From positions 12,731-76,730 of IMG/VR virus record IMGVR_UViG_3300007734_000753: 64,000 nt of DNA; one strand, 5' to 3'. Source of the stretch: a virus. Position 1 is the first letter of the stretch; the number at the start of each line of letters is the position of its first letter. The position numbers were made by a program, and so were the translations under genes. The notes under the pieces are model-generated. The model made no database searches. It saw nothing but the letters and a program-made list of their open reading frames with translations, and had not been told where the DNA came from. Below are positions 1 through 64,000 of the stretch, piece by piece.

Positions 1-2
1 TC

Positions 3-320
3 AAGCCCGGTTTCTCTTCAGCCTCAACGATTCAGTCACTTTCTAAGTTCAATGGTGTTGTTTCGTGGTTGTGCAGTGAAATTTTCGATCTTACTCCTGA
101 ATATATTTCGGCTGGCACTGCAAGAAAATTTTGCGGAATAAAAGTTCCAAAGGGAGAGAAGGCAAAAATCTTCGTCTTCAACTTTATACTTGACACGATC
201 CCCGAGTTCAACGTAGAATATACTGCTAAAGGCAATCCTGTCCCCGGTTCTTTTGACCGAGCTGACAGTTATGTTATTGCCAAGGCAGGAAATGTTTTAT
301 GTCAAATGAACAAAAAATAA
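3..320 (+). CDS. RuvC-like Holliday junction resolvase (5' partial)
   Basis: Frame is open from the window edge (KPGFSSASTIQSLSKFNGVVSW...). C-terminal DRADSYVIA resembles the RuvC DxxDA acidic motif. Lies directly before primase. Confidence 0.65.
   Translation, partial: KPGFSSASTIQSLSKFNGVVSWLCSEIFDLTPEYISAGTARKFCGIKVPKGEKAKIFVFNFILDTIPEFNVEYTAKGNPVPGSFDRADSYVIAKAGNVLCQMNKK
190..219 (+). promoter_or_regulatory. sigma70-like promoter upstream of primase
   Basis: TTGACA (190-195), N18, TAGAAT (214-219). Confidence 0.45.
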
Positions 321-1237
321 AAATAATTTCCTCAATCTTTGGTGAGTATTCCAAGTCAGGAAAAGAGTTTTTATTCTATTGCCCAGCTTGTAAACATCAC
401 AAGAAAAAACTGAGTGTCAATCTTGAGAAAGATAAGTTCAAGTGTTGGATTTGTGACTACTCTGGAAATAGTATTCGCCGTCTTGTTCGTCGCTATGGCG
501 ATGCGACTCAAAAACAAGAGTGGTACAAGATCGATAATCGGATTGAACTAGCCGATTTTGATTTAGATTTCTTTGACGAGAAGGAAGAAGAATCTCAAGA
601 AACGATTGAGTTACCAAAACAATTTATGTCACTCTGTAACAAGGAAACTCTGGCTTCCACGGTACCGCTTTCCTATCTAAAAAATCGCAGAATAAATAAG
701 CAAGACATTTTACAATGGAAAATTGGTTATTGTTTTGAGGGCGATTATGAAGGTCGTATTATAATTCCATCTTTCGACATGAAAGGTGAGCCAAACTTCT
801 TTGTGGCGAGAGCCTACTCAAAAAGTTATTATCCCAAATACAAGAATCCTCCAGCATCAAAAAACATCATCTTCAATGAATTGTATCTTGATTTTGATGA
901 AGATTTGATTATAACAGAGGGAGTATTTGATGCAATTGTGGCAGGAAATAATTCTGTTCCAATCCTTGGCTCCACAATCAACGAGAAAAGCCGGTTGTTT
1001 CAGAAGATTGTCACATACGACACGACAGTTTATTTGGCTCTTGATCCAGATGCGAAAGACAAAGAAAACAAAATAATTGAGAATCTTCTCAAATATGGTA
1101 TTGAAATTTATAAAATCAAAGTCGATCCTTTCAAGGATGTTGGCTCAATGACCAAAGAGGACTTCCAATCCAGAAAGAAGGATGCTATACTGATCGACAA
1201 CGATAACTATTTTGTTTATCAGACAATGTGTGCATAA
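299..1237 (+). CDS. DNA primase (Zn ribbon + TOPRIM)
   Basis: CPAC...CWIC zinc finger; RIIIP, KYKNP, ITEGVFDA and LALDPDA TOPRIM motifs. Confidence 0.9.
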   Translation: MSNEQKIKIISSIFGEYSKSGKEFLFYCPACKHHKKKLSVNLEKDKFKCWICDYSGNSIRRLVRRYGDATQKQEWYKIDNRIELADFDLDFFDEKEEESQETIELPKQFMSLCNKETLASTVPLSYLKNRRINKQDILQWKIGYCFEGDYEGRIIIPSFDMKGEPNFFVARAYSKSYYPKYKNPPASKNIIFNELYLDFDEDLIITEGVFDAIVAGNNSVPILGSTINEKSRLFQKIVTYDTTVYLALDPDAKDKENKIIENLLKYGIEIYKIKVDPFKDVGSMTKEDFQSRKKDAILIDNDNYFVYQTMCA

Positions 1238-1247
1238 CGGAGAATAG

Positions 1248-4200
1248 ATGAAATTTAGTCATATCAGCGATATTCATATTCATAATCTAAAGTATCACAA
1301 AGAGCAGAAACAAGTCTTTGAGAAAGTTTATGAACACCTGAAAGCCAATAAAGTTGACATAAACATCCTTACTGGCGATCTATTTCATATCAAAGGAAAT
1401 GTTACGCCAGAAGCATATCAAGCCGCTGCTGACTTTCTAAAAAACTTGGCAGACATTGCACCAACGCATATTATTCTTGGCAATCACGATCTAATCTTAT
1501 CAAACAAGAATCGACTTGACAGCGTATCGCCAGTTGTTGATGCGTTGAATCATCCGCTTTTGTTTTTACATAAGAATTCAGCAGAGATTACGATTGGCGA
1601 TGGCAAGTTTGCTCTAAACGTAATGTCTATTGTTGATGAACAAGAGGACTGGATTCCAGTATCAAATCCAAACGCTGTGAACATTGGTTTGTATCATGGT
1701 TCAGTTGCTGGAGTTCTAACTGATCAAAATTGGGTTATGACTCATGGCGAAATAGACGTTGAGAAGTTTGCTGATTTTGATTATGTTTTGCTTGGCGATA
1801 TTCACAAAGCAAATCAAATTTTAGACACAGAAGGTCGTGTTCGTTATGCAGGAAGCCTGTGTCAAAACAACTTTGGGGATCTAGACGATAAAGGCTTTTT
1901 GATCTGGGATATAAAAGATAAAAACAACTTTACCGTTGAACATATTCATATTCCAAATCCAAAACCATTTATAAATCTAGATCTTGAAAGCGATGGAACT
2001 GTTCCAGCTAAATTTGCTTGCCCAATTGGTTCGCGTATTCGTGCAATTGGTCACACTGATTTATCATCTGATAAAATTAAAAAAACTCTTGAGCTTATTA
2101 GAAAAAAATACAAACCAGAAAGTTTGTCGTTTCAGAATAAATCAAAAACAAGTGACACTCGTTTGCTTTTGTCTGACTCATTGAAAAATACAAATTTACG
2201 AGACGAAGACACACAAAAGAAACTAATCAAAGAATATCTAAAAGAACACACCGTTACTGATGATGTGTTTGATGAAATTTATACTCTCAATGCTAAATAT
2301 AATAGAGAGGCAGAAGCCAATGAAGAGGTATCGCGCAATGTTCAATGGAAGCTGAAGAAGCTAACATGGGATAACCTTTTCAATTATGGGGAGGGAAACG
2401 AAATTGACTTCACCAAAATTAAAGGCACTGTGGGTATTTTTGGTAAAAACTTCTCTGGTAAGTCTAGCATTATTGATAGCTTACTATTCGCGATTTATAA
2501 TAACACTTCTAAAAATATACGAAAAAATCTCTTTGTCATCAACCAAAACAAAAAGACTGCAAGTTGCTGTGTGGAAATCGAGGTTGATAGCAAAGTATAC
2601 AAGATTGAGCGCAACTTATCCAGATACACCAAAAAGCTCAAAGGAGAGGTCACGGAAGAGGCGAAGGCGACGGTAGACTTTTCTTATTTTGATATGCTCT
2701 CAAATGAAACTGTTAGCCTAAATGGTGTTGACGGCAACGAAACAAATAAAAATATACGCAAACTATTTGGCACCATTGAAGACTTTTTTGCTACTTCAAT
2801 GTCATCACAGACTGGCGCACTTGATTTTATCAACGAAGGTTCGACTCGGCGCAAAGAAATATTTGCCAAGTTCCTTGATTTAGAAATATTTGAGACAAAA
2901 TTCAAGCTTGCCAAAGATCAATCTTCTGTTATCAAGGCGGCATTGCGTCGTCTTGAAAATAAGAATTTTGATTCTGAAGCCTCTGAAATCAGGCAACTTG
3001 TTATTGATAACGAAGAGAAAACAAAGAATAAAGTTGACGAGATAGAAAAAAACAAAGTTATTATCTCTGACCTATCAAAAGAGATTCAATCGCTTGAAGA
3101 TAAAATCTCAAAGATTGATTCTGAAAACATTGATATTGTATCAGTAAAATCAGAGATAAAGAGTCTAGAGGAGACTAGAGATACTTTATTACAAGACAAT
3201 TTTGCTAAAAACAAGAAAATCGAAGAGTCAGAAGCCTTCATCCAGAAAGCACAAGCCTTTTTATCTGAGTTTAATATTGACGATGTAAAGAGCAAAAAAC
3301 AAAATCTAGCTTCTCTAATAAACCAACTTGACGCTCTAAACGCTTCAACTGCCGAACAAAAGAATCTTTTATCAATTTATAAAACCCACACCGATGGGCT
3401 AAACAATCTTCCTTGTGGTAAAACTTATCTTGATTCATGTTCTTTTATCAAAGAAGCAAATGAGTATTTGAGTAAAGTTGATGTTGTCGAGCTGGCTATT
3501 CAACAGGGCGAAACAAATGGTCAGCAGCTTGCTGCCCAAATTGCAGAAATAGATGAAAACAAACTCAACAACTATATTGAAAAATTCGAGAAGCTTCGGC
3601 TAAAGAAAAACGACGAAGAAAAAAATATCATCAATTTCAATCTTGTGATTGAGAAAAACAAAAATATAATCACAGGTCTATCAGAAAAATTACGTCTTTT
3701 TTCTGAAAAGTTAAAGTTTTACGAAGAGCACAAAGATGCAATAGAAAACAAGAAAAACCTACTTGTTGAACTTACAACCAAAAAAGTTGCAGTAGAAAAT
3801 ACTAAAGTTCTTGTAAAAAGTCTTGAGCTTGAGTTAGCATCTTTATATAAAGAACATGGTTCGCTTGAGCAAAAGATTGAGACAATAAAACAAAATGAAA
3901 AAGAAAAAGTATCCCTTGAAAAACAATATGCAGCTTATGAACTATTCATGCGTTGTATGCATAGCAACGGAATTGCATTTGATTTGATCAAAAAGAATTT
4001 ACCAGTTATTAATCAAGAGATCGCCAAAGTTCTATCAAACATTGTAGAATTTGAGATATTCTTCGAGAATACGGATAATAAACTTGATATCTTTATCAAA
4101 CACCCAAAATATGATGCTCGTCCTCTAGAAAACGGTTCCGGCGCAGAAAAAACATTAGCTGCAATGGCTATTCGCATTGCTTTGATCAATATTACAAATA

Positions 4201-4406
4201 TGCCAAAGCCAAATATTTTTATTCTTGACGAACCGGGAACTGCCCTTGATAATGATAATATGGAGGGTTTTATCCGTATTCTAGATTTGGTCAAGAACTA
4301 TTTTGATATCACGGTGCTAATTAGTCATATAGATCAATTGAAAGATGCAGTTGATACAAACATTGAAATTTCGCGAAACGAAGGTTTCGCATTTGTAAAA
4401 TGCTAA
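1248..4406 (+). CDS. Fused SbcD/Mre11 nuclease and SbcC/Rad50 ATPase (gp47-gp46-like)
   Basis: Phosphoesterase motifs SDIH, GDLFH, GNHD and GDIH, then Walker A GKNFSGKS, long coiled coil, signature GSGAE, Walker B ILDEP and H-loop ISH. Confidence 0.9.
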   Translation: MKFSHISDIHIHNLKYHKEQKQVFEKVYEHLKANKVDINILTGDLFHIKGNVTPEAYQAAADFLKNLADIAPTHIILGNHDLILSNKNRLDSVSPVVDALNHPLLFLHKNSAEITIGDGKFALNVMSIVDEQEDWIPVSNPNAVNIGLYHGSVAGVLTDQNWVMTHGEIDVEKFADFDYVLLGDIHKANQILDTEGRVRYAGSLCQNNFGDLDDKGFLIWDIKDKNNFTVEHIHIPNPKPFINLDLESDGTVPAKFACPIGSRIRAIGHTDLSSDKIKKTLELIRKKYKPESLSFQNKSKTSDTRLLLSDSLKNTNLRDEDTQKKLIKEYLKEHTVTDDVFDEIYTLNAKYNREAEANEEVSRNVQWKLKKLTWDNLFNYGEGNEIDFTKIKGTVGIFGKNFSGKSSIIDSLLFAIYNNTSKNIRKNLFVINQNKKTASCCVEIEVDSKVYKIERNLSRYTKKLKGEVTEEAKATVDFSYFDMLSNETVSLNGVDGNETNKNIRKLFGTIEDFFATSMSSQTGALDFINEGSTRRKEIFAKFLDLEIFETKFKLAKDQSSVIKAALRRLENKNFDSEASEIRQLVIDNEEKTKNKVDEIEKNKVIISDLSKEIQSLEDKISKIDSENIDIVSVKSEIKSLEETRDTLLQDNFAKNKKIEESEAFIQKAQAFLSEFNIDDVKSKKQNLASLINQLDALNASTAEQKNLLSIYKTHTDGLNNLPCGKTYLDSCSFIKEANEYLSKVDVVELAIQQGETNGQQLAAQIAEIDENKLNNYIEKFEKLRLKKNDEEKNIINFNLVIEKNKNIITGLSEKLRLFSEKLKFYEEHKDAIENKKNLLVELTTKKVAVENTKVLVKSLELELASLYKEHGSLEQKIETIKQNEKEKVSLEKQYAAYELFMRCMHSNGIAFDLIKKNLPVINQEIAKVLSNIVEFEIFFENTDNKLDIFIKHPKYDARPLENGSGAEKTLAAMAIRIALINITNMPKPNIFILDEPGTALDNDNMEGFIRILDLVKNYFDITVLISHIDQLKDAVDTNIEISRNEGFAFVKC

Positions 4407-4415
4407 AGGAGTAAA

Positions 4416-6290
4416 ATGAAAAAGTATTTATTATTAATGCCGCTTCTAATAATTGGTTGTGGTGACGATCTTGGCTGGAAAGAAAAGAAAACCGACCATG
4501 ATTGTGCAGATTCAATGGTAGCCGACGCTGGTTCTTCCGACGTTGCACAACCACAAGATGTAAGTGAGGTGAACGATGTTCAATCAGACACAAATCAAGT
4601 TGTTGAAGATTCTGTTGACGCCACCGAAACTGATATATCCGATAGCAGTGGGAGCGACGACACTAGCGTTTCCGTCCCTGATAGCGTTACAGGAGAAGAT
4701 GCAGGAGATTCACAAGACGCAGCGGAAGACGTAACACAAGACGTTGCACCACCACCAGAGTGCGTGACTTCAACAGATTGCGCCGCCGCCGCACTCCCTT
4801 GCATCGCTCCTGATTGTGAAGCGGGTAAATGTGTAACAGTTCCAGCGGATACACCATGCTCAGACAACGATGAGTGTACTGTTGGCGATCAATGCCAAGT
4901 TGGTCAATGTGTTGGAGGCGCTCAGGCAAACTGTGACGATCTAAATCCATGCACAGATGATTCATGTGATCCAGCTAAAGGCTGCGTTCATTTACCAAAT
5001 CAAGTAACCTGTGTAGATGGAAATGGTTGCACTACTGATGATATTTGCAAAGATGGAGCTTGCGTAGCTGGTGTTCCATTCAATTGCGACGATGGAAATG
5101 TTTGCACAGATGATAGCTGTGAATCTATTGGTAAAAGCGAAATGCATGTTTGCAAGCATTTACCAAATCAAGCAACTTGCACTGATGACAATGTTTGCTC
5201 TTTAGACGATGCCTGTGAAGGTATGTCTTGCAAATCAAAATCAGCTGCTATTTGTGATGATAGTAACATTTGCACAAACGATTCTTGTGATCCTGTAGCT
5301 GGTTGTGTATTTTTACCAAATGAAGTAACTTGCACCGATAATGATGCTTGCACCTCAGATGATAAATGTGCCGATAAAGTTTGTAAATCTGGTGCTCCGC
5401 TAAATTGTGCAGACACAAATGATTGCACAACTGACTTATGTAAGCCAGAAACGGGCTGTTATTTTGATAATAATCAAAATGTTTGCAGTGATAATAATGT
5501 TTGTAGCGTAGATGATAAGTGTGAAGCTGGTGTTTGTGTCGCTGGTCTTCCAAAAGTTTGCGATGATGCAAATATATGCACGGTTGATTCTTGCGATCCT
5601 GTAAATGGATGCAAAGCTGTAAATGCTGCTGATGGGACAAAGTGTGCTGAAGGTATTTGCCAAAATGGCGCTTGTGCTTGCGTAAGCGGATTTGGCTGTG
5701 CTTCACCTAGCTTCTCATACGCCTCAGAAACAAATGCAGGCATGTTAGGCGGCATGGGTGGGCAAGTTGGACCAAAGATGGGTTGCAACGCTACTGATGT
5801 AATTATTGGTATCGGTTTTGATTTCAGTAATGGTCAAAAGAATGCAACAAAAACAACTGTCGTTTGTGGTAAAGTTTCTGTAGCACAAGACAGCACAGTT
5901 TCAACTGTTCAGACAACAACACAAAAGAACGGTGGTTCTGGCTGCTTTGGTTGGGATCCATCAACTCCAACTCCGCTTGTTGTTTGTCCAAATGGCTGGG
6001 CTGTGGTTGGTATTGAAGGAACAAAAGCGGGTTCAACATTGTTCAATAATGTTAAGCTTGTTTGTGGTAAGTTGGGAATTAATGGTAAATCAACAGGAGA
6101 GACACAAACTCTAACTGTTAATGGAACCACTGGTCCCGGCACCCAAGCACAAGTTGTTGCTTGTGCCGCTGGAACAATCGCTCGTTATTTTGAGACGAGA
6201 GCTGGTTGTGGTCAAGATGCTTTGACTTTGTATTGTGCTACACCTTCACCAGATTGCACTGGTCAAGAATTAATTTGTAAGGATCTATAA
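4416..6290 (+). CDS. Cys-rich repeat lipoprotein with C-terminal beta-prism/lectin-like domain
   Basis: Lipobox IIG-C, Asp-rich linker, tandem CDDxNxCTxDxC repeats, and a three-fold repeated C-terminal domain. Confidence 0.75.
   Translation: MKKYLLLMPLLIIGCGDDLGWKEKKTDHDCADSMVADAGSSDVAQPQDVSEVNDVQSDTNQVVEDSVDATETDISDSSGSDDTSVSVPDSVTGEDAGDSQDAAEDVTQDVAPPPECVTSTDCAAAALPCIAPDCEAGKCVTVPADTPCSDNDECTVGDQCQVGQCVGGAQANCDDLNPCTDDSCDPAKGCVHLPNQVTCVDGNGCTTDDICKDGACVAGVPFNCDDGNVCTDDSCESIGKSEMHVCKHLPNQATCTDDNVCSLDDACEGMSCKSKSAAICDDSNICTNDSCDPVAGCVFLPNEVTCTDNDACTSDDKCADKVCKSGAPLNCADTNDCTTDLCKPETGCYFDNNQNVCSDNNVCSVDDKCEAGVCVAGLPKVCDDANICTVDSCDPVNGCKAVNAADGTKCAEGICQNGACACVSGFGCASPSFSYASETNAGMLGGMGGQVGPKMGCNATDVIIGIGFDFSNGQKNATKTTVVCGKVSVAQDSTVSTVQTTTQKNGGSGCFGWDPSTPTPLVVCPNGWAVVGIEGTKAGSTLFNNVKLVCGKLGINGKSTGETQTLTVNGTTGPGTQAQVVACAAGTIARYFETRAGCGQDALTLYCATPSPDCTGQELICKDL
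4857..5642 (+). repeat. Five ~51-aa Cys-rich tandem repeats (ten CxDxNxC[TS]xDxC subunits)
   Basis: Units start CSDNDEC, CVDGNGC, CTDDNVC, CTDNDAC and CSDNNVC; each is paired with a CDDxNxCTxDSCDP-type half. Confidence 0.85.
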
Positions 6291-6292
6291 TC

Positions 6293-7306
6293 ATGAAAAA
6301 GCTGCTGATACTTTTATTATTATTTATTCCAAAAGTTGCTGACGCTTGGGAATCAACTATAGGCGTTGGTGCTTATGCGAGAAGATTTAATGAAAAGGAT
6401 CAGCTTGGTGCTCTTTCTAAAGATGAAGGTCTAAAACCAGAGAGTTCGGCTGGGTTGGCACTGAACGGTTCATTTCTGTTCAATGTCAGCCCTTCCCTAT
6501 TATTTGGTCCAGATTTAACAATAACTTATTCTTGGTTATCTGCGCCACAACAAGACAATTTACAAACTCAAAGTCTTATCGCTGCTGGTAATTTACAATA
6601 TAATGATAACGGCTTTAGTTTGGCTCTAAAATCCGGTTTTATTCTAAACTCACTTACTACTGAATATGATATAAAGATTGATTTTGATACAGGTTTTATA
6701 ACTTCTGTGAAGGTTGGTTCAGAGGTTATGGATTCCGCAAGATTTTATTTTGAGCCACAGCTAATCATAACTCCATCAACTGAGGCGAAGAATGTTTTTG
6801 TAAATTCATTTGCTTTGGTTATTGGTATTGAAAATGTATTTAGACCAAAGAAAAAGATTGAGGTTGTGAAAGTTGTAGAGGCTATTGTTGAACCTCCTAA
6901 AGAAATAACTCCCGTAAAATTACCAGAAGTTATTACACCAGTTGCCGCTCCACCTATTATTGTTGTAGCTCCAATCGTCGTTGAGCCACCAAAAGAAATA
7001 ACGCCAGTAAAATTGCCAGAACCTCCAACGCCAGTTCAGCCTGTCGAAAAACCAAAGCCATTAGTTCTAAAATTTGATGGAAATGAACTATCACCAGAAT
7101 CTATTGGCTTTTTAGAGAATATTGTAAAAATTCATAATAGTGTTGCCTCTGTTATCAAAGTCAATCACAGCAGAGGAAATAATGCTAAAAAGAAAGCAGA
7201 AATATTATACACTTGGTTTACTAATCATGGAGCGAAGAAAAAAGAGGTATTGGTAGTTCCCGGTCTAAAAGGCAAGGAAATAAGAATCGAAGTCGTTCCA
7301 AAGTAG
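6293..7306 (+). CDS. Outer-membrane beta-barrel protein with Pro-rich linker and degenerate OmpA-like C-terminus
   Basis: Signal peptide (ADA|W), alternating hydrophobic strands, Pro/Val linker, and C-terminal LKFDGNELSPES...KKAEILYTWF...IRIEV resembling OmpA_C. Confidence 0.55.
   Translation: MKKLLILLLLFIPKVADAWESTIGVGAYARRFNEKDQLGALSKDEGLKPESSAGLALNGSFLFNVSPSLLFGPDLTITYSWLSAPQQDNLQTQSLIAAGNLQYNDNGFSLALKSGFILNSLTTEYDIKIDFDTGFITSVKVGSEVMDSARFYFEPQLIITPSTEAKNVFVNSFALVIGIENVFRPKKKIEVVKVVEAIVEPPKEITPVKLPEVITPVAAPPIIVVAPIVVEPPKEITPVKLPEPPTPVQPVEKPKPLVLKFDGNELSPESIGFLENIVKIHNSVASVIKVNHSRGNNAKKKAEILYTWFTNHGAKKKEVLVVPGLKGKEIRIEVVPK
6887..7021 (+). repeat. Duplicated 14-aa unit VEPPKEITPVKLPE
   Basis: Copies at about 6887-6928 and 6980-7021; identical protein sequence with synonymous DNA differences. 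Confidence 0.85.
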
Positions 7307-7312
7307 GGCAAA

Positions 7313-9397
7313 ATGAAAAAATTATCTTTATTATTATTGTTGGTGGCTTGTTCTAACGCCGATCCAACAACTCAATCTTCTTTATCTATTGGCGGTAGTT
7401 TTATATTTGATGCCGGAACTCAAACGGAAAAAGACGCCGAAGAAGATACCAAAGAACAAACTTTTGATACTGTATCGTCTGAAGATATACAGGATATAGT
7501 TGAGGACATACAACAAGATATAACAGAAGATTCACAGACAGATGTAGTAGAACAAATAGACACTATAAAAGATACCAAACCAATTTGCGTCGATGAAGAT
7601 GGTGATGGATATGGTGAAAATTGCTCTAAGGGCAGCGACTGCGATGATGCCAATCCAAATTTCACAACGTATTGCCCAGACTGTAAAAAAGGCAATTATC
7701 CCGGCTGTATTTGCTCTGGTAAATCCGCTCCATGCTATTCAGCAGATCCAACAACAAAAGCCGTTGGTCAATGTAAAGCAGGAACGCAAGCTTGCAAATC
7801 TGGTATTTGGCAAGTTTGTATTGGTGAGATAACACCTTCACCAGAAGTTTGTGATAACATTGATAATGACTGTGATGGTCAAATCGACGAAGGCGTAAAA
7901 TCTTCTTGCGGAACTTGTGATCTTACTTGCGTAAAACAATCAGTCGGAGTCAATGAACCTATTATTCTCAACTCCGAGAACTCTTCTGGTGTCGGTATTG
8001 ATCCAAATACAGGCTTTATAAAGATTGATTCAAGCCAAATCTCATTGAAGCTCAAGTTCTTGTGGGCTTCTAATTCAAGTGAAAATACTGTATCAAAAGT
8101 TGATTGTAAGACAATAAAAGAATCTGGTCGTTATCAAGTATGTAATAATCCCTCAAGAACATCTGTAGATCTTGATGGAAATGTATTTGCTGCCTGTCGT
8201 GGTGATGGTAAGGTAGCAAAAATTATTGCGGATAAAAAGAACTGTATTGATAAAAATGGAAATGGTGTTATTGAGACAAGCGAAGATCTAAATGGTGATG
8301 GCAATATATCTGGTAATGAAATGGCGAATAATGATGAATGTATCCAATTTATCGTTCAGCCATTAGGCAATCAATCCTCTTATCCCGGCTCAAGAGGTGC
8401 GGCAGTTGATAAGTTCAATAATGTTTATATTGGTTATTGGAATGAAGCCAAAGTTGCCTATGTTGATGGAAAAACAGGGGCAACGATAAAAATAATTGAT
8501 TGGCAATGCCCGACTTATGGTCTAGTTGTTGATCAAAAAGGAACTCTATGGGGTCAAGGTAATGGCTGCGGTTGGCTAATGTCCTACAATCCAACCAGCG
8601 GTCAATGGGCAAAAGCTTCCTCATATGGGGCAAATGGAATTAGTGCTTATGGAATCAATGTTGATGGTAAAGGTCGTATTTGGGTTGGAGGAAGTTTGGC
8701 TCGCTATAATCCAGCAGATGGAAGCTGGATGAAATGTAATATAGGTTGTGCTGGTATTGCTACGGCAAACGACGGCATGGTTTGGCTAGCAAAAGATGGA
8801 AGCGGTATTGGAAAAGTTGATGGTGAAAATTGTGCTCAACTTGGAACTGTGAATAGTGGTGGCGCTCCGCATGGTTGTGCTGTTGATTTTGATGGTTATG
8901 TTTGGGGTGTGAATCTTGGCGGAAACTCCGTTGATAAAATTGAACCCGGCAAGACAGGGCAACAAATAGGACCATTATTAGGCTCTAGAAAAATAGGAAG
9001 CGGTCCATACACATATTCAGACATGACTGGATATACACTCAATTATTTTACCGCTCCAAAGGGCTTATTTACAACAACCTTCTTCGCTGGTGGAAATGGT
9101 AATCCCATTTCGCAGATGAAGCCAAAGGCTGTATGGCAAGAACTAAATGTCGAAGCTATGTTGCCCCCTGCCACAAAAGTCCATATTCGTGTTCGTGCGG
9201 GCGATACAAAAGATCAATTAGATAATGGAAACTGGATAGACATTATGGATTTGACAGATATGGCGCAAATGCCAGTTGATTTATCACAGAAAAACATTAT
9301 TGGAATAATGCTTCAGATAGAGATAAACCTCATCACAGAAGATAAAAAGGTAAGTCCTTCTGTTGGCTCAATAACAGCTAAGGCAAAACTACAATAA
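7313..9397 (+). CDS. Lipoprotein with Cys/Asp metal-binding repeats and a beta-propeller
   Basis: Lipobox LVA-C; CVDEDGDGYG..DCDD and EVCDNIDNDCDGQIDE motifs typical of myxobacterial proteins; propeller blades such as YGLVVDQKGTLW, GINVDGKGRIW and GCAVDFDGYVW. Confidence 0.75.
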   Translation: MKKLSLLLLLVACSNADPTTQSSLSIGGSFIFDAGTQTEKDAEEDTKEQTFDTVSSEDIQDIVEDIQQDITEDSQTDVVEQIDTIKDTKPICVDEDGDGYGENCSKGSDCDDANPNFTTYCPDCKKGNYPGCICSGKSAPCYSADPTTKAVGQCKAGTQACKSGIWQVCIGEITPSPEVCDNIDNDCDGQIDEGVKSSCGTCDLTCVKQSVGVNEPIILNSENSSGVGIDPNTGFIKIDSSQISLKLKFLWASNSSENTVSKVDCKTIKESGRYQVCNNPSRTSVDLDGNVFAACRGDGKVAKIIADKKNCIDKNGNGVIETSEDLNGDGNISGNEMANNDECIQFIVQPLGNQSSYPGSRGAAVDKFNNVYIGYWNEAKVAYVDGKTGATIKIIDWQCPTYGLVVDQKGTLWGQGNGCGWLMSYNPTSGQWAKASSYGANGISAYGINVDGKGRIWVGGSLARYNPADGSWMKCNIGCAGIATANDGMVWLAKDGSGIGKVDGENCAQLGTVNSGGAPHGCAVDFDGYVWGVNLGGNSVDKIEPGKTGQQIGPLLGSRKIGSGPYTYSDMTGYTLNYFTAPKGLFTTTFFAGGNGNPISQMKPKAVWQELNVEAMLPPATKVHIRVRAGDTKDQLDNGNWIDIMDLTDMAQMPVDLSQKNIIGIMLQIEINLITEDKKVSPSVGSITAKAKLQ

Positions 9398-9401
9398 GCA
9401 A

Positions 9402-9409
9402 ACTACTTA
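9402..9409 (+). promoter_or_regulatory. Late promoter variant ACTACTTA
   Basis: One mismatch to ACTATTTA; intergenic, upstream of the endolysin GGAGG RBS. Confidence 0.55.
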
Positions 9410-9431
9410 TAGTACAAACGGAGGATAAACA

Positions 9432-10370
9432 ATGCTAATAAAAAGAGGTATGACAGGTCCATTAGTTGCTGCTCTACAGCAAAACTTGGAAGATCTAGGA
9501 TATGAACTAGGAAATGTTGATGGTGCTTTTGGTAAGAACACCGAAGCTGCTGTAAAAGATTTTCAAGGTAAAAAAGGACTTGGTGCCGATGGCGTTGTTG
9601 GTCCAAAAACATTACAAGCAATTGATGCTGCCCTAAAAGCTGCTGGCAAAGAAGGCGCTGAATTTGATGATCAACCAGAAGAAGCCCCAGCAGTTATTCA
9701 AGAAGTAAATGTAAAAATGGGTTGGGTCACTTGCCCTGCTGATAAATATCCCGGCAAAGACGGCTATGGCTCAACAATTTTGAGAACTGATGCTGCGGCA
9801 GCATATAAAGAACTAAAAGCCGAAGTAAATGCTCTCGGTGGCGTTGTAACTTCTGCTGGTGGTCGTCGTGCTCTAAGCTCTGGTGCCGGTCCAGCAAGAT
9901 CAAAAACCTCAATGCATTATACAGGTTTAGCTTTTGATATGTCATTAGCAACTGGTATGCAAAGCACAGAAAGAGATCCTTTCTTATGTGTGAGAGTTCC
10001 AGATAGCCGCAAATGGACTGTTTGGTGTAAATCAGACAAAGCCTCAGAAGTAGAATTAGATGTTGTAACTTGCTCAACTGTAAAAGGCAAGACACAACTA
10101 AAAACAACCAAAATAAAAGTAAAAGCTTTCAACTTTACCGAAGTTGCTGAAAAACATGGCTTCTACAGCATTTCAGCTCGCAAGTCCTTCTTTGAGGGTG
10201 GTGCTTATGGTGGAGCCGAGTGGTGGCACTTCCAATACAACAAGGCTCTTACAAAGGGTCAAAGCAAGTTCGGTGAAGAACTATTAAAAGTTTATTCTCT
10301 AAATGAGGCTCAAAAGTTCGTTTATTGGAACGAAGTAAAAGACAATGTTTACGGCGTAAACTGGTTCTAA
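9432..10370 (+). CDS. Endolysin: peptidoglycan-binding domain + M15-family Zn peptidase
   Basis: DGAFGKNTEAAVKDFQ and DGVVGPKT are PG_binding_1 motifs; SMHYTGLAFD and EWWHF are M15 motifs. Confidence 0.85.
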   Translation: MLIKRGMTGPLVAALQQNLEDLGYELGNVDGAFGKNTEAAVKDFQGKKGLGADGVVGPKTLQAIDAALKAAGKEGAEFDDQPEEAPAVIQEVNVKMGWVTCPADKYPGKDGYGSTILRTDAAAAYKELKAEVNALGGVVTSAGGRRALSSGAGPARSKTSMHYTGLAFDMSLATGMQSTERDPFLCVRVPDSRKWTVWCKSDKASEVELDVVTCSTVKGKTQLKTTKIKVKAFNFTEVAEKHGFYSISARKSFFEGGAYGGAEWWHFQYNKALTKGQSKFGEELLKVYSLNEAQKFVYWNEVKDNVYGVNWF

Positions 10371-10381
10371 GGAGTAAAAAT

Positions 10382-10726
10382 ATGGATAACAAGTTATTAA
10401 AAAAATTAATCATGGAAGAATTAAAAGTATTATTGAAAGAGGAAGTAGGAGGTTCTACCGCAAATCATCCTTGCGTAAAAGGCGATCCTATTCGTCCCGG
10501 CTATAGAAGTGTAAATGATGATACAAGCTCTCTTCAGCCAGCAGAAGCACAATTATCAAAAGCAAGATGCTTTAGAGCCGCAATCAATCTTACAGAACAA
10601 GCAAAAAAAACAACACCAACTGGCGGCGGGGCAGATCGTGGCGCGTATGTGCCAACCCCACAGGGAGAAAAACTTCTCAACATGGCGAAGCAAGCAATTG
10701 AAACTTATTTCCAACTGCAGAAATAA
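10382..10726 (+). CDS. Putative internal head protein
   Basis: ATG at 10382 after GGAG; N-terminal LLKKLIMEELKVLLKEE is the recurring motif. Confidence 0.55.
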   Translation: MDNKLLKKLIMEELKVLLKEEVGGSTANHPCVKGDPIRPGYRSVNDDTSSLQPAEAQLSKARCFRAAINLTEQAKKTTPTGGGADRGAYVPTPQGEKLLNMAKQAIETYFQLQK

Positions 10727-10736
10727 AGGGTAAATC

Positions 10737-11150
10737 ATGACTAACTGGCTAAAAAACAATTGGGCTACTTTGCTTGTGTTTGTTGTTGTATTATCCGCTG
10801 CTTTATGGATCAAAGGTAAATTTGATGAAAGCAATACAGAGGAAGTAAAGCAACAATATATAAAGCAAATGGAAGATCAAAGAAAGTCTTTTGATTCTCA
10901 AATAAAAGAGATAAATAAGATTAATGAAGAAGCTTTATCAAAACAAAAAGAGTTGGCTTTACAACATCAACAAACTTTAGAGAACCTACAACAGCAATTT
11001 GATGAAAAAGTATCTGAACTTGAAGAGTTGAAAAAACTAAAAGTAAAAGAACTTACAAAGCAGCTTACTGATGATCCAGAAGTTGCTGTTCATGAAATGG
11101 CTCATAAGTTTGGTTTTGATGTTGTCGTTGTTCCCGAGGAAGAACCATGA
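10737..11150 (+). CDS. i-spanin-like protein (N-terminal TM + coiled coil)
   Basis: One N-terminal TM helix and a long coiled coil, near the endolysin. Confidence 0.55.
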   Translation: MTNWLKNNWATLLVFVVVLSAALWIKGKFDESNTEEVKQQYIKQMEDQRKSFDSQIKEINKINEEALSKQKELALQHQQTLENLQQQFDEKVSELEELKKLKVKELTKQLTDDPEVAVHEMAHKFGFDVVVVPEEEP

Positions 11151-11578
11151 ATAAAATAATAGCATTTATATTATGTTTCTTGTTTCCTCTATCAGCGTTC
11201 GCAGATAACGGCAAAGTTGCTTCAATTAGAGAAAGCCAGAAAGCTCCATTTACAGGCTTTCTTTTTGATGCCGCAGCATTTGCTAAGATAGAAGTTGATA
11301 AACAAACCATTATTGAGAAATATGAACTTGAGAAAAAGTTATTAATTGAAAAATGCGAGGCAGAGAAAAAGTTTCTAAATGAAACTTGTATCAACGAAAA
11401 AGATGTTTTAGTCAAAACAAACGACGTTGTTCTCAAAGGAAAAGATGAAGAAATAACAAGGCTAAATAAAATTATTGCTGATATGGCTCCACCAAATAGA
11501 GGCTTATGGCTTGGGCTTGGTGCGGCAGCAGGAATAGCAATTAGTCTTACAACAGTCTATTTAGTAAAGAACTTATAG
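11147..11578 (+). CDS. Secreted coiled-coil protein with C-terminal TM (possible spanin partner)
   Basis: Signal peptide AFA|D, C-terminal hydrophobic helix, ATGA overlap with the previous gene. Confidence 0.5.
   Translation: MNKIIAFILCFLFPLSAFADNGKVASIRESQKAPFTGFLFDAAAFAKIEVDKQTIIEKYELEKKLLIEKCEAEKKFLNETCINEKDVLVKTNDVVLKGKDEEITRLNKIIADMAPPNRGLWLGLGAAAGIAISLTTVYLVKNL
11556..11563 (+). promoter_or_regulatory. Late promoter TCTATTTA
   Basis: CTATTTA core about 30 nt upstream of 11591. Confidence 0.5.
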
Positions 11579-11590
11579 GAGTGCTAATGT

Positions 11591-12043
11591 ATGGGAATCA
11601 AAGAAACAATTTCAGACGCAATAAAGAAAGAGGGTCAAGTGCAAGTCCCAGAAGATAAACAAAATCGTTTTAATGTAATCTTCCAAAAAATGATGAGTGT
11701 GAGATGGTATATCACATTTATCACAATGATTACTTTACTTGCTATTCTCTGCGGTATTGTGCTTTCTATTATGGTAAAAGCTGATATGGCTCAAGAGTGG
11801 AAAGAGATTTTATTGCTTATTCTTGGCGCTTTTATTGGTTCTTATAACAGAGTTATTGACTTTTGGTTTAATAATTCACAAAGAGATCAGATAATGCTAC
11901 AGAAGATTGATGAAGAAGACGATCCACCGGGAACTCCAAAATCAGATACACTTACTGTCTCCCCAGCGCAAGACGCAATTGAAGTTAAAATGCCCGAACC
12001 TACACCAGTAAAATCAAAGGAAGAAAAAAATGAAGATAAGTGA
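11591..12043 (+). CDS. Two-TM membrane protein (holin-like)
   Basis: Two TM helices followed by VIDFWF; located in the lysis cluster. Confidence 0.5.
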   Translation: MGIKETISDAIKKEGQVQVPEDKQNRFNVIFQKMMSVRWYITFITMITLLAILCGIVLSIMVKADMAQEWKEILLLILGAFIGSYNRVIDFWFNNSQRDQIMLQKIDEEDDPPGTPKSDTLTVSPAQDAIEVKMPEPTPVKSKEEKNEDK

Positions 12044-12368
12044 ACTCAAACAAATAATAAAAGAAGAACTACAAAAAGCCCTAGCGGAAGAAAAAGAACT
12101 AACAGCAAGAGAAAAGAAACTAGCAGCGATGCGTCCACCAGAGGATAAAATTACTAGAGGTGATGTTATTGCAGCCGCACAAAAAAAGAAAGCTGGTCAA
12201 CTAGATGAAGAAGAAGCACAACATCTTTCTAAAGCTGAAAAGAAAGAAAAAGAAAAAATTGTAAAAGGCATGAAAGACAAGAAGTCAGATTTTGAGAAAA
12301 GATACCCCGGTCGTGGTGAAGAAGTAATGTATGCAACTGCTACAAAAAAAGCTAAAGAAATGAAATAA
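12030..12368 (+). CDS. Putative internal head protein (highly charged)
   Basis: N-terminus MKISELKQIIKEEL; modules DKITRGDVI and KSDFEKRYPGRGEEVMYATATKKAK separated by LAE and LDE. Confidence 0.65.
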   Translation: MKISELKQIIKEELQKALAEEKELTAREKKLAAMRPPEDKITRGDVIAAAQKKKAGQLDEEEAQHLSKAEKKEKEKIVKGMKDKKSDFEKRYPGRGEEVMYATATKKAKEMK

Positions 12369-12370
12369 AA

Positions 12371-12378
12371 ACTATATA
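12371..12378 (+). promoter_or_regulatory. Late promoter variant ACTATATA
   Basis: Intergenic, upstream of small ORF 12405. Confidence 0.5.
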
Positions 12379-12404
12379 ATATACACAAAGGAGGTGATGA
12401 CAAT

Positions 12405-12506
12405 ATGGCTACTAAACCAAGCAAAATTCCAGTAAAGAATCCCGGTCCAAATGAGAAATCAGGCGGCAAGCTCAAGCCACTCGGCGGCGGCAAGAAAGGC
12501 AAATAA
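12405..12506 (+). CDS. 33-aa basic peptide (not in ORF track)
   Basis: MATKPSKIPVKNPGPNEKSGGKLKPLGGGKKGK*, with a strong SD AAGGAGGTGA and a hairpin downstream. Confidence 0.65.
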   Translation: MATKPSKIPVKNPGPNEKSGGKLKPLGGGKKGK

Positions 12507-12521
12507 TCTAGAAATAGATTG

Positions 12522-12560
12522 AATCCCCTGCAAGTTACTATTTACTTGCAGGGGATTTTT
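12522..12560 (+). terminator. Hairpin terminator with late promoter in the loop
   Basis: AATCCCCTGCAAGT / ACTTGCAGGGGATT plus a T run; ACTATTTA at 12537-12544. Confidence 0.75.
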
Positions 12561-12568
12561 GTATATAA

Positions 12569-12829
12569 ATGAAACTAGAGATTCTGATAGAAATGTGTAA
12601 AGCAATGGGCGTATCATACGCATATCCACTTCCTCTTTCTTATACAGAAGATGAGCCAAGCGATGATGAACAATGTGATACAAAACATGCTACAATTTCT
12701 GTAAAAGAAGTGCCATATGATAATGTGCCAGATGGTGCTGCATATCTAATGAACTACCAAATTTTTGAGAAAAATGAAAAACAAAGACCCAAACTTCGTA
12801 CCAAAATTAGAAAAAGCCATAGAAAATAA
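12569..12829 (+). CDS. Hypothetical protein
   Basis: ORF follows the hairpin/promoter and overlaps the next gene. Confidence 0.45.
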   Translation: MKLEILIEMCKAMGVSYAYPLPLSYTEDEPSDDEQCDTKHATISVKEVPYDNVPDGAAYLMNYQIFEKNEKQRPKLRTKIRKSHRK

Positions 12830-63604: not shown

Positions 63605-63960
63605 GTGCCCGAACTGGTTTCGATTGGGTAATTTTACTATAGCTGCGGAGTGGTGAGGATAACACCGTAAAAAAATTCAAAACAACAACTGCCAACGACA
63701 ACGTTGAGTTTGATTACGCACTAGCTGCTTAGTCAATGGAGTCGCTGAACGCTCTATGAAATAAGTTCAGATAGGCTTGGACACTGCCGAAAATAATGTC
63801 CATTAGGTTTTTTTAATGGCTTTTACCTGAAAATAAAACCATATGAAGTTACCCCAATGTATTGGGTGGTTATGTCAAGCGGTCTGGTTGCTTGACTATC
63901 TTCGTGAATGAGGCTATACTAGGGTTATTCAAGACCGAGGTTCGACTCCTCGCGGGTACA
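63605..63960 (+). ncRNA. ssrA: tmRNA (transfer-messenger RNA)
   Basis: Acceptor stem GTGCCCG/CGGGTAC with G3-U70 and discriminator A; T-arm CGAGG-TTCGACT-CCTCG; helix 2 TTGGGTAATTTTA/TAGGGTTATTCAA; tag ANDNVEFDYALAA* at 63691-63732. Confidence 0.93.
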
Positions 63961-64000
63961 CTAAAATGATTACAGACGCAATAAATACAGTAAAAGAAAA

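Follow-up and report, generated by a model that had tools for sequence, protein, structure and literature searches.

A mobile set of exported envelope protein genes next to the lysis cassette of an uncultured T4-like aquatic phage

The stretch analyzed here, referred to below as the window, is a 64-kb part of the 76.7-kb IMG/VR virus record IMGVR_UViG_3300007734_000753, which has an estimated completeness of 42% and a guanine-plus-cytosine (GC) content of 37%. The analysis concerns three adjacent open reading frames (ORFs) near its start, designated P0001, P0002 and P0003, which encode exported envelope proteins and adjoin the lysis genes of the phage. All genes of the window are located on one strand. 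The virus gene set includes a primase, a fused SbcD-SbcC nuclease and an endolysin, and a T4-type large terminase, portal, prohead protease, major capsid protein, neck and sheath are encoded as well. The large terminase is 46% identical to that of Flavobacterium phage 'immuto'. The source is an uncultured T4-like myovirus of roughly 180 kb and is probably lytic rather than temperate. The three genes and the predicted parts of their products are arranged as follows.

4416-6290, + strand: P0001, putative outer-membrane lipoprotein of 624 amino acids (aa)
codon 4458-4460, + strand: Cys15 of P0001, up to which signal and lipobox extend
4461-4760, + strand: acidic tether of P0001, residues 16-115
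4761-5687, + strand: Cys-rich stalk of P0001, ten Dicty_CTDC-type units
5688-6287, + strand: conserved head of P0001, residues 425-624, 200 aa
6293-7306, + strand: P0002, protein of OmpA architecture
6293-6346, + strand: cleavable signal peptide of P0002
6347-6844, + strand: 8-strand barrel of P0002, about 165 aa
6845-7060, + strand: Pro-rich hinge of P0002, disordered
7061-7303, + strand: degenerate OmpA-C-like domain of P0002
7313-9397, + strand: P0003, lipoprotein of 694 aa
7349-7351, + strand: lipid Cys13 of P0003
7352-7576, + strand: acidic tether of P0003
7577-7942, + strand: Cys/Asp-rich module of P0003, with CDNIDNDCDG at residues 180-189
8045-9037, + strand: 7-blade YVTN propeller of P0003
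9050-9394, + strand: C-terminal beta-sandwich of P0003

A preceding sequence-only reading had described three tightly packed genes flanked by sbcCD and the endolysin gene, and the coordinates bear this out: 9 bases separate sbcCD from P0001, 2 bases P0001 from P0002, 6 bases P0002 from P0003, and 34 bases P0003 from the endolysin gene. Compared with a close strain, the three genes show ratios of non-synonymous to synonymous substitution rates (dN/dS) of 0.07-0.12. Together with the many full-length homologs, this indicates that they are constrained, expressed genes and not chance ORFs. Gene-wide diversifying selection is ruled out by the same ratios. Searches of PHROGs, NCBIfam and PADLOC gave no match for P0001, P0002 or P0003, and tblastn against the INPHARED phage collection gave none for P0001 or P0003.

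P0001 begins with a signal and a lipobox that are conserved through its family. The tether of 100 residues contains 29 D/E and 3 K/R, and the ten units of the stalk, each of 25-26 aa, span residues 148-407 of a protein with 62 Cys in total. Dicty_CTDC (PF00526) is the sole Pfam family matched at E<=0.1, scoring 72.7 bits (cut-off 27) over five stretches; tandem Cys repeats of ~24 aa are typical of this family, and the ten units of P0001 were recognized by pattern; an NCBIfam scan at E<=0.1 matched no family. The lipobox Cys15, the acidic tether and the Dicty_CTDC match agree with the earlier description of a lipoprotein with an acidic spacer and a 10-unit Cys stalk. The "lectin-like tip" of that description corresponds to a conserved 200-aa head, for which a lectin fold could not be confirmed. 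The head has no Pfam or PDB sequence match, and PDB sequences searched with a P0001 family profile yielded nothing at E<=1. A three-fold internal repeat proposed for the head was not significant (segment-to-segment z 0.7, -0.6 and 2.5), and a protein atlas gave weak leads only, to VOMI and Jacalin clusters (0.85-0.86). Head homologs (n=25) are identical in architecture throughout. The head, 60-100% identical across them, is the best-conserved part of the protein, and the stalk gains and loses repeats, so that its length varies. The C-terminus reads ...ELICKDL. The motif GCGDDLGW (residues 14-21; 4455-4478) is nearly invariant family-wide and exceeds what a lipobox requires; it may be a sorting or surface-export signal.

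The structure of P0002 was predicted with AlphaFold2 from 22 family members, with a predicted local distance difference test (pLDDT) score of 77. In this model, the barrel superposes on OmpW (Z 17.1), the OmpA transmembrane domain (Z 16.3) and the OprF N-domain (Z 15.8). It is followed by a hinge with 18 Pro among 69 residues (188-256) and by a beta-alpha-beta-alpha-beta-beta domain of 80 residues (258-337), so that the predicted protein has the layout of OmpA and OprF, with an 8-strand barrel, a Pro-rich hinge and an OmpA-like C-terminal fold. The C-terminal domain superposes best on Acinetobacter baumannii OmpA-C (3td3; Z 9.4, root-mean-square deviation (rmsd) 2.4 Å over 80 residues) and also on Pal, TagL, OprF-C, RmpM and MotB, the OmpA-C-like matches ranging from Z 7.8 to 9.4. 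OmpA-C domains are about 110-130 aa long, compared with about 80 aa in P0002. The barrel, Pro linker and OmpA-like tail recognized by the sequence-only reading are thus matched by the predicted fold, and no Pfam family was found for P0002, PF00691 being silent even at E<=5. The alignment of the 22 family sequences contains no conserved Asp or Arg column in the C-terminal domain, which indicates that its wall-binding residues are not conserved. The domain is predicted to be basic (isoelectric point (pI) 9.8) and the periplasmic arm to be Pro-rich. The signal peptide is conserved within the family.

P0003 is a lipoprotein of a different kind. Its lipobox Cys is invariant among 64 homologs; lipobox conservation thus extends across both the P0001 and the P0003 families. 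The propeller superposes on an S-layer protein of Methanosarcina mazei (1l0q) with Z 35.6 and rmsd 2.1 Å over 279 residues, five Z units ahead of the next match. Cys13, the CDNIDNDCDG sequence and the YVTN superposition are in line with the lipoprotein with a CDxxDNDCDG motif and a beta-propeller that had been described before. More than 400 homologs were found, and many of these are encoded on contigs 100-300 kb in length. When species-representative genomes were scanned, 579 matches were obtained, nearly all in metagenome-assembled genomes (MAGs) labelled Myxococcales, Myxococcota or Deltaproteobacteria with a GC content of 58-70%, and each P0003-bearing MAG harbors 2-4 full-length paralogs. 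P0003 of the window is 60-65% identical to homologs in Myxococcota-labelled MAGs and retains all conserved motifs. No conserved gene neighbours were found in 79 bacterial loci, and Cys-repeat lipoproteins occur within 10 kb of P0003 in only 9 of about 62.

A maximum likelihood tree was built from P0003 proteins of phages (n=11) and bacteria (n=42). The phage copies are scattered between the bacterial copies at no fewer than four positions, and the window copy groups with copies from two MAGs with 100% support. A single phage clade was rejected by the approximately unbiased test (p-AU 2.6e-5). The same applies to a clade of the window copy and that of the other trio-bearing lineage (p-AU 1.7e-5), a grouping that was named after the tree had been seen. 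P0003 is therefore of host origin, and judging from this phylogeny its family has been passed between bacteria and phages at least four times. These exchanges are not recent, because codon usage is fully adapted to the phage: GC at third codon positions is 0.24-0.26 in P0001-P0003, at or below that of core phage genes, which rules out a recent capture from a high-GC host. Two P0003-bearing phage contigs (L089, 12063-16892; L097, 8685-12973) carry runs of paralogs starting with MK(K/Q)LLENWK-FL-E.

The sequence-only reading had treated the three genes as a trio. Their adjacency stands, but they are not a single unit, as the P0001-P0002 pair and P0003 evolve independently of each other. Wherever a locus extends far enough to reveal the gene order, P0002 comes immediately after P0001; this applies to loci in the window, in the group of the relative G011, in the unrelated contig G010 and in five metagenome contigs. 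A word-indexed search found 44 P0002 homologs, all on contigs of at most 26 kb, and an exhaustive profile search of 1.84 billion representatives found only 22 clusters. One 170-kb contig encodes both a P0001 relative and a very distant relative of P0002. Neither the P0001 head nor the P0002 profile was found in five candidate-host MAGs, which are incomplete, and tblastn of P0002 against the 79 bacterial loci gave no match. As judged from gene order and distribution, P0001 and P0002 are an obligate pair, here found only on viral and short metagenome contigs. P0003 stands alone at four or more other genome positions in other phage contigs. The G007 record, which is 88% complete, contains P0003 and lacks the pair, and G010 contains the pair without P0003 within its 101 kb.

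The independence of P0003 allows for the explanation that it serves the auxiliary upkeep of a host function, such as capture of nutrients or cofactors at the surface, and that its adjacency to the pair is accidental. This would be consistent with its solitary occurrence in most phage contigs, at several positions and once beside a Na/Pi-cotransporter-like gene, with its identity of 60-65% to host paralogs and its intact motifs, and with a generic fold likeness to propeller lipoproteins of the cell surface such as BtuG (Z about 25). However, the propeller match is generic, the bacterial loci reveal no conserved neighbours, and P0003 is welded to the pair in two phage clades. We regard this explanation as quite improbable.

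The co-occurrence of the three genes in related phages was confirmed by the G011 group, in which the trio order is kept. There the trio is located between capsid and neck genes, behind a hairpin terminator that follows the capsid gene, and has its own copy of the motif ACTATTTA, a candidate late promoter discussed below, and a Shine-Dalgarno site. Such an arrangement is that of a cargo cassette insulated from its surroundings. The genes thus show the traits of accessory genes, in that they are non-structural, exported, variably present, movable and, in one relative, equipped with their own regulatory signals.

The same arrangement, between capsid and neck genes and behind a late-type motif, would also suit virion fibres or decoration proteins, and a Cys-repeat stalk with a globular head is fibre-like. 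Against such a role, Sec signals are conserved in all three proteins and lipoboxes in two, and P0002 is predicted to be an integral outer-membrane barrel. Moreover, no PHROG structural family is matched, presence varies among relatives, and the genes of the window lie outside the late region. A virion role is therefore highly improbable, and the assignment of the genes to exported envelope proteins of the phage, as already made from the sequence alone, is upheld.

The surroundings of the trio show a further feature that the sequence-only reading had missed and that is the main new point of this analysis: the trio is genetically coupled to the lysis cassette. The features ahead of and behind it are the following.

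1248-4406, + strand: SbcD-SbcC fusion, single 1052-aa ORF, SbcD-like in residues 1-339 and SbcC-like in 214-1047
9432-10370, + strand: endolysin with N-terminal PG_binding_1
10737-11150, + strand: 137-aa protein with N-terminal membrane helix and coiled coil, i-spanin-like, weak PHROG 89 match
11147-11578, + strand: 143-aa protein with N-terminal signal and C-terminal membrane helix, ATGA overlap with the previous gene
11591-12043, + strand: 150-aa two-helix membrane protein, holin-like by position
12521-12558, + strand: hairpin terminator of 15 pairs, which closes the block and contains the first ACTATTTA copy in its loop

The motif ACTATTTA occurs at 18 sites compared with 3.6 expected by chance, all of them on the + strand between 12537 and 62400. 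It is usually located 10-25 bases upstream of start codons, of structural and other genes, and is absent from positions 1-12500. It is a candidate late promoter and resembles a reversed-looking cousin of the T4 motif TATAAATA. As the first copy lies at 12537, there is no late motif directly ahead of the trio, as had been noted before, and this suggests that the trio is read together with the primase-sbcCD-lysis unit. The hairpin at 12521-12558 forms the border between this early/lysis block and the packaging genes.

The coupling raises the possibility that P0001-P0002 is an accessory part of lysis or egress, acting with the endolysin, the holin and the coiled-coil inner-membrane protein. The pair could be a barrel-anchored substitute for a missing o-spanin lipoprotein, or it could imitate OmpA but, lacking the wall-binding residues, weaken the link of the outer membrane to the cell wall. 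Several observations are consistent with such a role. The trio abuts the cassette, and no terminator occurs between it and 12521. No small lipoprotein ORF that could be an o-spanin candidate was found in 9300-12600; P0001 and P0003, with 624 and 694 aa, are large, and neither is adjacent to the coiled-coil gene. P0002 combines a Pro-rich arm with its basic C-terminal domain, and the coiled-coil protein has an acidic C-terminal tail. A doubtful 133-aa ORF (10375-10731) lies between the endolysin and the coiled-coil gene, and some strains appear to lack this segment, since contigs of relatives join 10374 to 10732.

Comparison with other phages points in the same direction. G010 (101 kb, 49% GC) has five BLAST-detectable genes in common with the window and is otherwise unrelated. 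It contains a cluster of an endolysin, a small ORF, P0001, P0002 (by profile) and a holin-like gene, in which the endolysin homolog stands beside the pair and the holin-like homolog directly after P0002. Three of the five shared genes lie inside this cluster, so that the pair and the cassette around it are nearly all that the two phages share. In the collinear relative G011, sbcCD is directly followed by terminase-proximal genes, which shows that the whole 8-kb block is missing at that site. The trio of G011 and L087 is immediately followed by a gene for an exported SLT transglycosylase, and in L084, where P0003 stands by itself at this position, the pair and the SLT gene are both absent. The SLT-domain protein of L087 (12078-12593, + strand; 171 aa), encoded directly after the trio, has a lipobox-like N-terminus and its own ACTATTTA and is possibly the exported endolysin of that lineage.

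The extent of the coupling was revealed by a comparison of the window with the strains L114/L115, whose primase and terminase proteins are 100% identical to those of the window. For primase, sbcCD and terminase, the synonymous divergence (dS) amounts to 0.05-0.10, and the gene preceding the terminase reaches 0.18, whereas every gene from P0001 through the holin-like gene (4416-12043) shows dS of 0.33-1.08, with dN/dS of 0.04-0.13. This indicates that the block 4416-12043 was swapped in as one piece. Recombination has produced a mosaic here whose borders are sharp, and purifying selection acts on every gene of the block. Such an exchange as a unit would also fit a role in lysis. However, the absence of the pair from G007 shows that it is not a core lysis function, and lysis cassettes are classic sites for unrelated cargo, such as lambda bor or the stx genes. 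In addition, the G011 pair is located away from spanin-like and holin-like homologs within the 75 kb examined, and a 624-aa stalked lipoprotein resembles no known spanin. A role in lysis or egress is therefore unlikely, although it is the second explanation in order.

The potential hosts of the phage were also analyzed. A transfer-messenger RNA (tmRNA) gene is located at 63605-63961 on the + strand and encodes the tag ANDNVEFDYALAA; the tags in the four MAGs examined are ANDNVEYALAA or ANDNVELALAA. The tag-coding DNA of phage and MAGs is identical over about 18 bases, and the remaining RNA is just 45-50% identical. This resemblance favours Myxococcota-type bacteria as hosts. The link to Myxococcota made by the sequence-only reading is strengthened by these tags, by the 60-65% identical P0003 homologs in Myxococcota-labelled MAGs and by stalk-like Cys repeats, which are common there. 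The hosts are thus likely to be uncultured aquatic bacteria of the Myxococcota type. Phages of 46-51% GC have been linked to Myxococcota through clustered regularly interspaced short palindromic repeats (CRISPR) spacers (preprint 10.64898/2026.09.14.751636).

A Bacteroidota host, suggested by the terminase similar to that of a Flavobacterium phage, the GC content of 37% and the CGDD sequence at the lipid Cys, was rejected because Shine-Dalgarno sites are frequent in the phage (P0001 has AAGGAG), because of the tmRNA tag and because of at least four exchanges with Myxococcota-type MAGs. Some MAGs with Myxococcota-type P0003 paralogs and a GC content of 58-68% are labelled Enterobacteriaceae or Klebsiella (L003, L005, L008, L011, L016 and L017), and a Myxococcota-type tmRNA tag is present in G002. 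These labels were treated as errors, as this GC content and a tag identical to that of Myxococcales-labelled MAGs contradict them. The stretch is present at >=99% identity in viral-fraction metagenomes, and about ten studies contain its relatives, in metagenomes from freshwater, estuaries and other aquatic sources. Two runs marked "RNA?" carry distant relatives only and probably consist of DNA. The major capsid protein of the phage (23783-25606, + strand; 607 aa) contains an insert rich in Ala, Gly, Ser and Thr (about 230 residues, at roughly 105-335) that separates the PHROG-matching capsid parts and coincides with a locally raised GC content.

Taken together, the genes are best explained as a mobile accessory envelope module that alters the surface of the infected cell, chiefly for receptor masking and exclusion. 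We assign this explanation as a whole a probability of roughly 45%. During infection, Sec, Lol and BAM would sort the three proteins to the outer membrane of the host, where the P0002 barrel and the stalked P0001 lipoprotein would work together and the phage P0003 would join or replace the host's own copies of this lipoprotein. The outcome would be an altered surface of the infected cell, which the membrane debris freed at lysis would share. By analogy with Lom-LamB and Llp-FhuA, its likeliest purpose would be to mask or change receptors, which would keep out rival phages and prevent the loss of progeny to debris. The sequence-only reading had also proposed that the phage remodels the surface of its host. 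The exported envelope proteins required for this are present, and the altered surface would follow from them, with receptor masking or exclusion as the likeliest purpose.

Several points weigh against this explanation. Masking of receptors in cis needs no long rigid stalk, and the coupling to lysis genes suits a role in lysis or egress equally well. The proteins may be exposed at the cell surface or may instead face the periplasm. No RNA run is listed as containing the stretch. The host assignment, likely as it is, rests on gene sharing and the tmRNA tag and not on CRISPR spacers, the ANDNVE start of the tag is one that we take to be specific to or typical of Myxococcota, and the GC gap between the phage (37%) and its candidate hosts (58-70%) is unusually large. 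Receptor masking and exclusion are nevertheless placed first, before lysis or egress, an adhesion device resembling TraA/TraB, an auxiliary function of P0003 and, last, a role as virion parts.

To our knowledge, phage genes for host outer-membrane proteins are found increasingly often, and almost none has a known role. Against this background, the strict pairing of a stalked lipoprotein with an OmpA-like barrel and the repeated capture of a host lipoprotein by different phages are noteworthy, and the P0003 family is flagged as a surface protein relevant to conflict between phage and host. The coupling to lysis genes frames the alternatives as receptor masking, outer-membrane rupture or cell-cell adhesion. 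A bolder and doubtful version of the last two holds that P0001-P0002 is a new two-part outer-membrane device exchanged together with endolysin and holin, either a substitute for the o-spanin or a fusogen or adhesin that acts like TraA/TraB at the moment of lysis. Such a device could serve, for example, to rupture the outer membrane or to attach the lysing cell to hosts nearby. In addition, the results tie a low-GC group of T4-like aquatic phages to uncultured high-GC bacteria of the Myxococcota type, for which we know of very few phages. New in this analysis are the position in the lysis cassette, the sharing of this cassette with an unrelated phage, the exchange of the block by recombination, the exhaustive search for P0002 and the link through the tmRNA.

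That reading had compared the trio with TraA and TraB of myxobacteria. In Myxococcus xanthus, these two proteins form an outer-membrane exchange system with TraA as the kin-recognition receptor. The defining features of TraA are an N-terminal variable domain of the PA14-like type, repeats of type TIGR04201 and the sorting tag MYXO-CTERM (PMC3325183; PMC12045341), and TraB has a large N-terminal barrel of about 400 aa, TSP3 repeats and a PF00691 domain (PMC12045341). As now modelled, TraAB consists of a rigid Cys-rich stalk with a head and a barrel/OmpA-like partner from the adjacent gene in a 1:1 ratio (PMC3325183; PMC12045341). P0001 and P0002 resemble this arrangement, with a rigid Cys stalk and head next to a barrel and OmpA-like partner in a myxobacterial setting. 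By analogy, the stalked lipoprotein could bind neighbouring cells while its barrel partner provides the anchor, and infected cells would adhere to their neighbours or fuse with them in an adhesion, kin-recognition or outer-membrane-fusion process. The parallel architecture, the strict pairing, the variable stalk length among homologs, as in surface adhesins, and the likely Myxococcota-type hosts are consistent with this. However, P0001 has no PA14-like domain (Pfam, E<=0.1), and its globular domain is C-terminal and conserved. Across the record, TIGR04201 reached at best 11.1 bits against a cut-off of 25, the P0001 repeats fitting PF00526 instead, and MYXO-CTERM (TIGR03901) gave no match at E<=1. 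The domain order of P0001 is reversed and its anchor is an N-terminal lipobox. P0002 lacks the large barrel and TSP3 linker of TraB, and with 8 strands in about 165 aa, a Pro-rich hinge and no PF00691 match its predicted structure looks closer to plain OmpA/OprF than to TraB. The analogy therefore holds for the architecture of P0001 and P0002 only and does not extend to family membership. Nothing was found that speaks for kin recognition: the recognition domain of TraA is polymorphic, whereas the P0001 head is the most conserved part of its protein. The failure to find the head and P0002 in the five MAGs also means that no homotypic partner was seen in the host. A device of the TraA/TraB kind is thus improbable.

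Phage-encoded envelope proteins of the 'moron' kind provide a closer comparison. Lambda Lom is an 8-strand barrel of the Ail/OmpX type, Bor is a lipoprotein encoded beside the lysis genes, and T5 Llp, which targets FhuA, and Cor-type lipoproteins block the receptor used by the phage itself. Lom is reported to bind LamB and thereby to prevent superinfection (preprint 10.64898/2026.10.24.761521). Like these proteins, the products of the trio comprise a Sec-exported barrel and lipoproteins that are not part of the virion and vary in presence among relatives, and their genes are located beside lysis or structural genes and, in one relative, are insulated by a terminator and a promoter. At the sequence level the two groups are unrelated, and the window encodes three much larger multi-domain proteins with a full OmpA architecture, a disulfide stalk of 300 aa and a copy of a host family. 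The trio would not be expressed from a prophage, because the phage is T4-like and probably lytic.

With respect to the lambda spanins Rz/Rz1, P0002 shares a predicted outer-membrane-anchored Pro-rich arm and is located in one block with endolysin, holin-like and coiled-coil genes. Size and architecture are far off, the pair does not adjoin the coiled-coil gene, and relatives can do without it. The P0003 propeller is 21% identical to that of 1L0Q; in both cases a beta-sandwich follows, and P0003, like 1L0Q, is a putative cell-surface protein. P0003 differs in its bacterial and phage origin, its lipid anchor and the additional Cys/Asp-rich module. OmpA-domain proteins from Cellulophaga phage phi17:2 and several uncultured phages are present in BFVD, and 1,603 barrel proteins were counted in 1,303 huge phages, with 8-strand OmpA/OmpX-type barrels being common (preprint 10.64898/2026.10.24.761521). 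P0002 belongs to the same predicted fold class and has the same barrel-plus-OmpA-like layout, but is a sequence orphan with a C-terminal domain cut to 80 aa and is always paired with a stalked lipoprotein. As 8-strand proteins of this type are now known to be common in phages, the trio is best filed under the accessory outer-membrane genes of phages.

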